A DNA stretch of 64,000 bases, from assembly GCF_003334815.1 (NCBI RefSeq), contig NZ_QOWO01000015.1, one strand, 5' to 3'. Under the pieces are notes generated by a model, which was not told the DNA's origin, made no database searches, and worked only from the letters and a program-made list of their open reading frames with translations. Positions 46,153-53,768 of the stretch are shown here, piece after piece. The number at the start of each line of letters is the position of its first letter. Positions within the stretch are counted from its first letter, which is position 1. This DNA comes from Escherichia coli. GTDB lineage: Bacteria; Pseudomonadota; Gammaproteobacteria; Enterobacterales; Enterobacteriaceae. The translations under genes and the position numbers were made by a program.

Positions 46153-46169
46153 TAAACATTAAATAAACC
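46153..46169 (-). promoter_or_regulatory. PhoP box upstream of phoPQ (autoregulated promoter)
   Basis: Minus strand reads GGTTTA-TTTAA-TGTTTA, a perfect (T/G)GTTTA-N5-(T/G)GTTTA direct repeat about 60-77 bp upstream of the phoP start. Confidence 0.8.
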
Positions 46170-50767: not shown

Positions 50768-52018
50768 ATGGAAAGTAAAGTAGTTGTTCCGGCACAAGGC
50801 AAGAAGATCACCCTGCAAAACGGCAAACTCAACGTTCCTGAAAATCCGATTATCCCTTACATTGAAGGTGATGGAATCGGTGTAGATGTAACCCCAGCCA
50901 TGCTGAAAGTGGTCGACGCTGCAGTCGAGAAAGCCTATAAAGGCGAGCGTAAAATCTCCTGGATGGAAATTTACACCGGTGAAAAATCCACACAGGTTTA
51001 TGGTCAGGACGTCTGGCTGCCTGCTGAAACTCTTGATCTGATTCGTGAATATCGCGTTGCCATTAAAGGTCCGCTGACCACTCCGGTTGGTGGCGGTATT
51101 CGCTCTCTGAACGTTGCCCTGCGCCAGGAACTGGATCTCTACATCTGCCTGCGTCCGGTACGTTACTATCAGGGCACTCCAAGCCCGGTTAAACACCCTG
51201 AACTGACCGATATGGTTATCTTCCGTGAAAACTCGGAAGACATTTATGCGGGTATCGAATGGAAAGCAGACTCTGCCGACGCCGAGAAAGTGATTAAATT
51301 CCTGCGTGAAGAGATGGGGGTGAAGAAAATTCGCTTCCCGGAACATTGTGGTATCGGTATTAAGCCGTGTTCGGAAGAAGGCACCAAACGTCTGGTTCGT
51401 GCAGCGATCGAATACGCAATTGCTAACGATCGTGACTCTGTGACTCTGGTGCACAAAGGCAACATCATGAAGTTCACCGAAGGAGCGTTTAAAGACTGGG
51501 GCTACCAGCTGGCGCGTGAAGAGTTTGGCGGTGAACTGATCGACGGTGGCCCGTGGCTGAAAGTTAAAAACCCGAACACTGGCAAAGAGATCGTCATTAA
51601 AGACGTGATTGCTGATGCATTCCTGCAACAGATCCTGCTGCGTCCGGCTGAATATGATGTTATCGCCTGTATGAACCTGAACGGTGACTACATTTCTGAC
51701 GCCCTGGCAGCGCAGGTTGGCGGTATCGGTATCGCCCCTGGTGCAAACATCGGTGACGAATGCGCCCTGTTTGAAGCCACCCACGGTACTGCGCCGAAAT
51801 ATGCCGGTCAGGACAAAGTAAATCCTGGCTCTATTATTCTCTCCGCTGAGATGATGCTGCGCCATATGGGTTGGACTGAAGCGGCTGACCTGATTGTTAA
51901 AGGTATGGAAGGCGCAATCAATGCCAAGACCGTAACTTATGACTTCGAACGTCTGATGGAAGGCGCTAAGCTGCTGAAATGTTCAGAGTTTGGTGAAGCG
52001 ATCATCGAAAACATGTAA
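50768..52018 (+). CDS. icd: NADP-dependent isocitrate dehydrogenase, 416 aa, uninterrupted
   Basis: Full-length [41 protein letters not shown]... with a native C-terminus and terminator; no prophage junction. Confidence 0.96.
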
Positions 52019-52039
52019 TCTCTCCATGTGTTAAATATT

Positions 52040-52073
52040 GAAACGGGCGTATAACACGCCCGTTGTTTTATTT
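52040..52073 (+). terminator. icd intrinsic terminator
   Basis: Hairpin AACGGGCG-TATAACA-CGCCCGTT followed by GTTTTATTTA. Confidence 0.65.
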
Positions 52074-52120
52074 ATGTGGATATTATTAATAGCATATCGA
52101 GCATATTTATATGAAGCCCA

Positions 52121-52444
52121 TTACTTGAGCCCATATGGGCATATTTTTATAATGCAACTATTATGTAAACATTTATTTGTTATTTTGCTTTCTCCTGGAG
52201 GACACTCTTGACTGCTTTTGAGTAAACTCCATAAATCCTTGTTGAATGGTGCGATGTGATAAATAGTAATAGGATATTCTTTATCCTTAAGGATAATACC
52301 AGACTTAACCGGTGTAAATATACTGCCAGGAGGGAGAAATATAGTAGATTGATACCAGATGATCATTTTCATATTACCCCATATGGCTGAAAAAGATATA
52401 CCACATGTAGGTTGAATTACCGTGTCAATTACTATCCACTTCAT
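52121..52444 (-). CDS. iraM: Anti-adaptor protein IraM (RpoS stabiliser under Mg2+ starvation), 107 aa
   Basis: 107-aa [15 protein letters not shown]...CPYGLK recognised as IraM (YcgW); low-GC coding sequence. Confidence 0.85.
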
Positions 52445-53143
52445 TTGTTATGTCTTATCCCACGGTATTTAATATGGTTCATTAGGATGTTTATTTCTTG
52501 ATTTTGCATATGAGTATATTACCCCCCCCTCAAAAAAATAAATTAATTAAAATGATGGCTTATATAAAATAAAATTTAAAGCAAGGAATCTCAATGGATG
52601 TTAAACAAAATGAGATTTTGTGAAAGCAATAAATTATTGACTTCGTTTTAGATTTGTTTAGCTATAATGTTATACATTCAAATGACTGAACATCCTGTAA
52701 TTAAAACATAGCCTTTATGCTACTTTGTGCCAATTTGCTAAACATTATGGTTGCCTTTTTATATAACGATAATAATGAATATAAGCATGACATGAGAATA
52801 AGGTTTCAATTTTTGAGTTATATAGGAATGATTTAACCTGTTCCTGGCTAAAATACATATAACCGGATGATGACTAAACCAAAATACATGTGCGTTAAGT
52901 ATTGAAACGGACGTGTGGCACGGCCGTTGTTTTTATAAATATGTTAACCGTTATAAAATAACGTATCAAAAGTCAAGTGATCACATTTCAAATATCAAGT
53001 TGATAGTATTAGTCTGGTGATTATTTATGGGTGACAATAAAAAGACAGTATTAATCATCCATAGAGATAGTCTCTGCACTTTTATTTCCATTATGCTAAT
53101 GCCTTACTGAATTATGAAGCATTTCTTAAGTATCCAACTTTAG

Positions 53144-53548
53144 CTAGATTAATGGTTTATTATTTTCTACATCTTCAATATATAAAAGCGTATTATCAAT
53201 GGCGTAGTAACTGCGTTTGTTATGATTAACATCAGTAACCCACCGGAAAACGCCCGCGCCTGCCAGTGTTGAACAGTATTCCCGAAATGTAGATTTTCCG
53301 CAAATATGAAGCAATGCGGCCTCTTTTATTTTAGCAGGGTTCTTGGTCGTACTAACTTTTAACAGGTTCCTGGTTCCTCTTAATAACAAAACCGTATCAT
53401 CGTGAGTAATAATTCTGATGTTATCCGTAGCCAGATAATAAATGTAATGTGCAATACGGTGATGTTTTAATTCTGAATAAAACCAGGAGAAGTTTTGCTC
53501 TTTTCTCACTTGCTCAAACATCTTTTGAAAAACAACGACCTGATCCAT
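53144..53548 (-). CDS. ycgX: DUF1398 protein YcgX, 134 aa
   Basis: 134-aa ORF in AT-rich context, upstream of bluR in the remembered K-12 order. Confidence 0.8.
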   Translation of the reverse strand: MDQVVVFQKMFEQVRKEQNFSWFYSELKHHRIAHYIYYLATDNIRIITHDDTVLLLRGTRNLLKVSTTKNPAKIKEAALLHICGKSTFREYCSTLAGAGVFRWVTDVNHNKRSYYAIDNTLLYIEDVENNKPLI

Positions 53549-53768
53549 CAGGATAATAACCTCTTGTTAGTTGTGAGACTGCGTAGTGTGCACGATCGGT
53601 TTTACCACTTCAATCTGGTCTGTCCTTTGGCTGTGATATGTACAGAGTGTGATAGAGGGAATATCTGAATTCTCCCGGTGAGCATTTTGCAACGGACCAG
53701 CTCCGGTACAAACGCTGTTGTGGGTTCAGATTATAACATTCTGTCTAAGGGGCGGGATAAAGGTGAAA

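Follow-up and report, generated by a model that had tools for sequence, protein, structure and literature searches.

The iraM-ycgX gap of Escherichia coli as a probable composite of the iraM control region, a relic icd terminator and an older ymgL flank

The gap between the genes iraM and ycgX (699 bp, positions 52445-53143) was analysed in a 64,000-nt stretch of Escherichia coli DNA from contig NZ_QOWO01000015.1, referred to here as the window. This gap is probably a composite, in which the control region of iraM and the small-protein gene ymgK, a relic copy of the icd terminator and an older flank with the small-protein gene ymgL lie side by side, and the features of its plus strand do not make up a gene. 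We give this explanation a probability of about 80%. A preliminary description had suggested that the gap could hold a small RNA or a micro-protein, or simply be the iraM regulatory region, and it pointed to promoter-like hexamers, a terminator-like hairpin with a run of five T residues (T5) and a 27-codon open reading frame (ORF), all of which are found where it placed them (Table 1). Its last suggestion is borne out on the left side, over two thirds of the gap, but the rest consists of the icd-terminator copy and the ymgL flank.

According to the explanation that we favour, the segment from 52445 to about 52890 would be the upstream half of an islet rich in adenine and thymine (AT), containing the iraM regulatory region and ymgK. 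The segment 52891-52937 would be the scar of a phage-derived element of the iraM family that integrated at the icd 3' end, and 52938-53143 would be an older flank carrying ymgL that is present with or without the islet. Phosphorylated PhoP would bind a repeat in the conserved core of the gap and activate iraM at low Mg2+, whereas the AT-rich flanks would be the kind of DNA that is silenced by H-NS, with Rho suppressing stray antisense transcription.

The gap corresponds to positions 1212004-1212702 of E. coli K-12 MG1655 (window coordinate plus 1159559) with 699 of 699 bases identical. The window is of the K-12 type and lacks the e14 prophage. Because e14 is absent, an intact icd directly precedes iraM. 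Over the gap itself the two sequences share the same gene order with ymgK and ymgL both on the minus strand and show no difference, whereas upstream K-12 has e14 and the window does not. The guanine-plus-cytosine (GC) content of the gap is 29.3% compared to 49.2% for the whole window, and at least 80% of the gap is present in 3855 of 5426 complete E. coli genomes. The earlier statement that the gap has no long ORF is correct in that the ORF listing contains none of more than 39 codons on either strand, but it overlooked the two annotated minus-strand small genes. The contents of the gap are ordinary and already known, with ymgK, ymgL and the iraM control region all on record.

The iraM-ymgK islet contains only these two genes and has a GC content of 31% (49% for the window). 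Its right boundary, the degenerate copy B of the icd terminator (52891-52933), shares 84% identity over 43 nt with copy A (52027-52069) at its left boundary (E = 2.5e-7 within the window), and sequence comparison across the window revealed the icd 3' end nowhere else. The nature of the islet is explained by genomes in which only the right-hand portion of the gap has a match, with the icd terminator running into the ymgL flank. In strains BEN2908 and AVS0790, the icd 3' end with a single terminator is joined straight to this flank. Alignment to the empty site shows that the left side of copy A continues into the right flank of copy B, and that copy A matches the single terminator of the iraM-less genomes. 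A junction query found the empty site in 1037 of the 5426 complete E. coli genomes, among them that of the type strain, ATCC 11775.

The cargo of the islet is related to phage proteins. IraM matches the NCBIfam model NF007393 (172.6 bits) and phrog_4407, and its homologs with 65% amino-acid identity are located just downstream of stx2c in phages encoding Shiga toxin 2 (Stx2). No similarity of the gap to phage DNA was found beyond the iraM coding region. The icd 3' end is a known integration hotspot: in the retrieved loci it hosts e14, an mcrBC-type element or a sit island, each followed by an icd 3' pseudogene, and e14 carries a diverged icd terminator hairpin of its own. Given the direct repeats, the empty sites, the phage-family cargo and the use of icd as an integration site, copy B is most likely an attachment (att)-type scar of an old phage-derived element, which carried an iraM-family gene and has lost its mobility genes. 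The closest parallel is the integration of e14 and other lambdoid elements at icd (icdC), where the element at the icd 3' end is likewise flanked by a diverged icd 3' duplicate including the terminator. The iraM islet differs in that its duplicate is only about 43 nt long (the terminator) and lacks the 165-bp coding part, in that the diverged copy is distal to icd and not fused to it, and in that no integrase, excisionase or other phage gene is left. In a published discussion, iraM was placed "on the e14 prophage" (PMC4045071). This placement is inaccurate, as iraM is found past icdC and is retained where e14 is missing.

Homologs of iraM were also observed in other phage settings. In the Stx2-converting phage 1717 (FJ188381.1, 3501-3824), the IraM homolog is encoded directly downstream of stx2cB on the opposite strand, and in many Stx2/Stx2c phages it is present but mostly unannotated or labelled "hypothetical". 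Judging from these similarities, Shiga-toxin phages may carry an anti-adaptor that stabilises RpoS. The iraM paralog iraL of strain CFT073 (NC_004431.1, 1534-1869) is part of the late region of a prophage, with tRNA-Ile/Arg/Arg genes on one side and a holin gene on the other, a position equivalent to the stx/iraM-like moron slot of Stx phages, and carries the RefSeq name "anti-adapter protein IraM". On the other side of the gap, YcgX matches phrog_413 ("head protein", E = 1.5e-41) and has paralogs with 78-81% identity at unrelated loci of other Escherichia genomes. Because of this match and these paralogs, the flank outside the iraM islet also looks phage-derived.

The region is interrupted by insertion sequences (IS) in some strains (NZ_OZ501598.1, 747-1444; NZ_AP029609.1, 1939-3872). 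Across the IS-carrying strains, IS1 is found between iraM and the PhoP-box-like repeat with ymgK, IS200C replaces the islet, and ISEc39 splits ymgL. Since these elements interrupt it, disruption of the gap region is tolerated.

Copy B was compared with copy A by folding and in an alignment of five alleles spanning the interval between the stop codons of icd and ycgX, which was also used for the analysis of conservation. Copy A has a predicted folding energy of -15.3 kcal/mol (z = -3.9), and copy B of -10.2 kcal/mol (z = -1.2), with 24 of 200 shuffled sequences being as stable. The stem of copy B carries an A.G mismatch in the allele of the window, is a perfect 9-bp stem in three of the five alleles, and is broken in O26 at a different pair from K-12. 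The covariation that the preliminary description had proposed to look for is not seen: the changes in the stem disrupt pairs and none is compensatory. Among the curated Term-seq 3' ends of Adams et al. 2021 (lysogeny broth (LB) at optical density 0.4 and 2.0, and M63), none was mapped on either strand at 1211900-1212699, which includes copy B, and none at copy A either. The same data do show an active icd terminator with a 3' end at 1196422/3, which is the e14-borne copy of MG1655. The pattern of stem changes, one of drift rather than of selection on structure, identifies copy B as a probable relic. It lacks a transcription unit to terminate and is decaying. Like the intrinsic terminator of a small RNA, copy B has a GC-rich stem followed by T5 on the plus strand, but it differs by its internal mismatch, a stability no better than that of shuffled sequence, and the lack of both an upstream transcription unit and a mapped 3' end. 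Thus, the hairpin with T5 reported earlier as having no plus-strand gene upstream is indeed present, but the "orphan" is a decayed duplicate of the icd terminator. The preliminary description had itself allowed for a degenerate icd-terminator copy to which no 3' ends map, and this is what was found under the published conditions.

Copy B is located exactly between two minus-strand units, and its hairpin might have been retained as an insulator, which would block read-through from ycgX-ymgL into ymgK-iraM on the minus strand or stray plus-strand antisense transcription into ymgL and ycgX. The stem followed by a T-run that is intact in three of five alleles is compatible with such a role, as is the minus-strand form, which folds with -9.7 kcal/mol (z = -2.7). 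However, the minus-strand stem is followed by UUCAAUACU and not by a U-tract, the Term-seq data from LB and M63 contain no 3' end at copy B on either strand, and the K-12 and O26 alleles have stems damaged at different pairs. In addition, plus-strand reads increase downstream of the region with bicyclomycin, which suggests that Rho and not hairpin B limits them. We consider retention as an insulator to be quite unlikely. In a separate observation on copy A, its loop in strain Survcare321 (NZ_CP076301.1, locus ~1104-1114, equivalent to 52048-52058 of the window) reads CGTGTTATACG in place of CGTATAACACG. The two are exact reverse complements, and hence the loop was inverted rather than changed by three independent substitutions.

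Both small-protein genes of the gap belong to the minus strand and are annotated in MG1655 as well as throughout RefSeq genomes, and both YmgK and YmgL have been detected by immunoblot in LB cultures using a chromosomal sequential peptide affinity (SPA) tag (VanOrsdel 2018, PMC6001520). The YmgK protein is identical in all alleles, with just two substitutions seen in its gene, both of them synonymous. In three alleles, a 30-codon extension of ymgK and also a 39-codon plus-strand ORF (52717-52836) are interrupted by a 1-nt indel. Both of these longer frames were rejected, and since the indel breaks them, the 14-codon annotation of ymgK is supported. The ymgL gene, which genomes lacking iraM also carry, is located outside the islet at a distance of 52 nt downstream of ycgX. 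Its ORF is intact in eight alleles with eight synonymous and 14 non-synonymous changes and a third-position excess, a substitution pattern which indicates that constraint on ymgL may be weak. No model of the NCBIfam and PHROGs databases matched YmgL, the plus-strand ORFs or the extended ymgK frame, and no ORFs resembling ymgK or ymgL were found beside the ycgX paralogs or the phage iraM homolog.

The earlier idea of a micro-protein was right to the extent that validated small proteins are encoded in the gap, but it named the wrong strand and the wrong ORF. Its 27-codon ORF on the plus strand (53027-53110) is antisense to ymgL, is preceded by GGTGA 6 nt upstream of the ATG, and is intact in all eight alleles examined. 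This open frame decides nothing, because the overlapping ymgL also stays open in the eight alleles and was detected experimentally, so that intactness is not independent evidence for the antisense ORF. With four synonymous and 12 non-synonymous changes and no third-position excess, its substitutions look neutral, being close to the neutral expectation. The ORF has no protein family match and no annotation in MG1655 or RefSeq, and plus-strand transcription is minimal in this region. It is extremely unlikely that this ORF encodes a micro-protein.

Sequence variation is unevenly distributed over the gap. The conserved core (52640-52810) has nine variable sites in 171 positions, compared to 82 in 528 for the remainder (Fisher p = 3.5e-4), and is less variable than the iraM coding sequence. 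The highest number of variable columns of any 50-nt bin (18 in 52519-52568) was found in a hypervariable stretch, in which the lengths of the C8 and A7 homopolymer tracts vary between alleles. This stretch could affect the expression of iraM or represent an unconstrained spacer.

The conserved core includes a direct repeat resembling the PhoP box, whose consensus is (T/G)GTTTA-N5-(T/G)GTTTA. The repeat (52644-52660) is invariant in the five alleles and is followed on the minus strand, toward iraM, by the hexamer TATTGC at a distance of 12 nt, with the box itself reversed. Reversed boxes with one mismatch each are present upstream of the iraM homolog of phage 1717 and of iraL; in the phage, the box (CGTTTATTCTTTGTTTA) lies 96 nt upstream of the homolog. 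Induction of iraM by Mg2+ starvation via PhoP/PhoQ has been reported (review PMC10948607). The invariance of the box, its 12-nt spacing, the parallels at homologs and the reported induction lead us to infer that 52644-52660 is probably the PhoP site of iraM, a candidate derived from sequence comparison. A second PhoP-like match at 52488-52504 was rejected as the main site, as it is not conserved (TGTTCA in two alleles).

The window also contains a perfect PhoP box, GGTTTATTTAATGTTTA, at 46153-46169 on the minus strand, followed after 12 nt by CATAAT and located upstream of an ATG at ~46092. This is the autoregulated phoPQ promoter, and the window thus also encodes the regulator of iraM, at a distance of about 6 kb. 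The candidate box of iraM resembles this PhoP-activated promoter (phoP P1) in having a (T/G)GTTTA-type direct repeat with an 11-bp period and 12 nt to a -10-like hexamer. In contrast to phoP P1, it has two mismatches, is reversed relative to iraM, and faces weak -10 candidates (TATTGC on the minus and TACATT on the plus strand).

Several observations speak against the composite explanation. No integrase, excisionase or other mobility gene is left in the islet, and because it has no integrase gene, the islet is called only a remnant. No orthologous outgroup locus was recovered from the contig collection, and for this reason the empty site might be the product of a deletion between the repeats and not the ancestral state. 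With regard to the PhoP-like box, matches with two mismatches are common (27 in the window against 16.4 expected), and the same 12-nt spacing is found on the plus strand to the -10-like TACATT. There is also a plus-strand orphan Rho-termination region at MG1655 position 1212310, equivalent to 52751 of the window (Rho score 2.57, p = 9.4e-5), and therefore some plus-strand transcription occurs. Furthermore, all transcript data come from LB or M63, which are not PhoP-inducing (low-Mg2+) conditions.

The first of the alternatives raised by these points is that the iraM-less state is derived, with the repeats formed by local duplication and iraM-ymgK subsequently lost by recombination in 19% of the genomes. 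The structure of the empty site, with copy A on the left and the flank of copy B on the right, is the same product as would result from a repeat-mediated deletion, and the scans yielded no outgroup locus. In these scans, a degenerate terminator pattern had no matches in the contig collection though it fits both K-12 and the type strain, and the YcgX protein returned only four paralogous loci sharing nothing beyond ycgX, with no E. coli ortholog; both outcomes probably reflect a limit of the collection or its index. However, the cargo of the islet belongs to phage families and has a foreign composition, and icd is a demonstrated integration site where other elements bring their own terminator copy. 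Moreover, copy B is the diverged one and copy A matches the empty site, which fits a repeat borne by the element. A loss of the islet is a serious alternative but rather unlikely, and we infer that the event was an insertion rather than a deletion.

In the second alternative, the plus strand would yield an antisense or small RNA about 250 nt long, starting at the TATAAT or at a PhoP-dependent start a short way downstream of the box and running across ymgK to hairpin B. The sequence TATAAT is present, and the plus strand has the PhoP-like box, 12 nt and TACATT with the spacing of the phoP promoter of the window. No part of the gap is better conserved than this segment, but its conservation is already explained by ymgK and the iraM promoter. 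Similarly, three of five alleles have a hairpin B with all 9 bp of the stem paired and a T-run behind it, but the stem changes in the other alleles are disruptive. As noted earlier, the 20-nt spacing of the hexamers is suboptimal, and the consensus scan did not call the pair because its spacer is outside the range of 16-18 nt. The -35 hexamer TTGACT is specific to the K-12 allele: the four others all have TTCACT, and three of them have TAAAAT in place of TATAAT. Promoter-like sites were not enriched in 51900-53700 (13 against 9.4 +/- 2.8 in shuffled sequences). A search of the same region against Rfam (E <= 1) gave no match above the gathering score, the best being SNORD72 with 30.6 bits against a cutoff of 43. 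This and the other sub-threshold matches (L20 leader and tpke11) were dismissed as chance.

Transcript data likewise do not reveal a discrete RNA in this interval. It contains no SMRT-Cappable-seq transcript and no transcription start site in the Kim 2012 data examined, and Term-seq showed no 3' end at hairpin B in three conditions, whereas the homologous e14-borne icd terminator was detected. The Rho-termination region on the plus strand favours some transcription, but the coverage around 1212310 is very low in untreated cells (45 reads per 800 nt upstream and 42 downstream) and rises with bicyclomycin to 122 and 293, respectively, so that termination is dependent on Rho and not on the hairpin. 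Rho-suppressed antisense transcription is usual in AT-rich horizontally acquired DNA, and the signal at 1212310 is low-level antisense transcription held down by Rho, not a discrete small RNA. An absence of plus-strand transcript had been named earlier as grounds for giving up the small RNA; no discrete transcript was found, but a weak Rho-suppressed plus-strand signal was seen. With its allele-specific -35 hexamer, its decayed hairpin without a mapped 3' end, no Rfam match and a weak Rho-limited signal, the proposed small RNA is not supported, and we regard it as distinctly improbable. A further Rho-termination region was reported inside ycgX on its own strand at 1212983, equivalent to 53424 (minus strand) of the window, with a Rho score of 3.3 (Adams et al. 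2021). Given this region, the transcription of ycgX-ymgL is prematurely terminated by Rho in LB.

It is also conceivable, though very doubtful, that the box at 52644-52660 is a bidirectional PhoP-dependent element, which at low Mg2+ would drive iraM in one direction (minus strand) and, in the other, a plus-strand RNA complementary to ymgK. Rho would keep such an antisense RNA in check, together with the relic icd terminator in those alleles whose stem is intact. If this were true, ymgK would be silenced when iraM is induced, or vice versa.

Table 1. Positions of genes and sequence features in and around the iraM-ycgX gap (window coordinates).
Feature	Position	Strand	Remarks
iraM-ymgK islet	52071-52933, ~863 bp		31% GC; bounded by two terminator copies; present in some E. 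coli, absent in others
icd-terminator copy A	52027-52069; hairpin 52042-52064	+	left direct repeat of islet; 9 pairs, 6 GC (terminator scan)
icd-terminator copy B, degenerate	52891-52937; stem 52906-52928; T5 52930-52934	+	right direct repeat and boundary of islet
Conserved core of gap	52640-52810		PhoP-like box, ymgK and ymgK upstream region
PhoP-box-like direct repeat	52644-52660	+ (reversed relative to iraM)	CGTTTTAGATTTGTTTA, CGTTTT-AGATT-TGTTTA; 2 mismatches to consensus
Hypervariable stretch	52519-52570		C8 (52522-52529) and A7 tracts; 7-nt AATTAAA indel
ymgK (b4738)	52701-52745	-	14 codons, MFSKLAQSSIKAMF; coordinates, strand and peptide as in MG1655 annotation
ymgL (b4739)	52981-53091	-	36 codons, MEIKVQRL...IFEM; coordinates, strand and peptide as in MG1655 annotation
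27-codon ORF of the preliminary description	53027-53110	+	ATG start; antisense to ymgL; not annotated in MG1655/RefSeq
TTGACT-N20-TATAAT pair	52637-52642, 52663-52668	+	sequence confirmed; without TG extended -10
icd	50768-52018	+	directly before iraM in window
iraM	52121-52444	-	anti-adaptor stabilising RpoS; family occurs in phages; annotated in MG1655/RefSeq
ycgX	53144-53548	-	DUF1398; bluR beyond

The significance of these results is small, as the gap belongs to the best-annotated bacterial genome. Where a terminator without a gene is flagged beside a prophage attachment site, duplication of the att site is worth testing first. For E. coli, iraM sits on its own islet of about 860 bp between duplicated icd terminators and stays in place when e14 is absent. 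The PhoP-like box together with ymgK is the only strongly conserved block upstream of iraM, which tells where to mutate.

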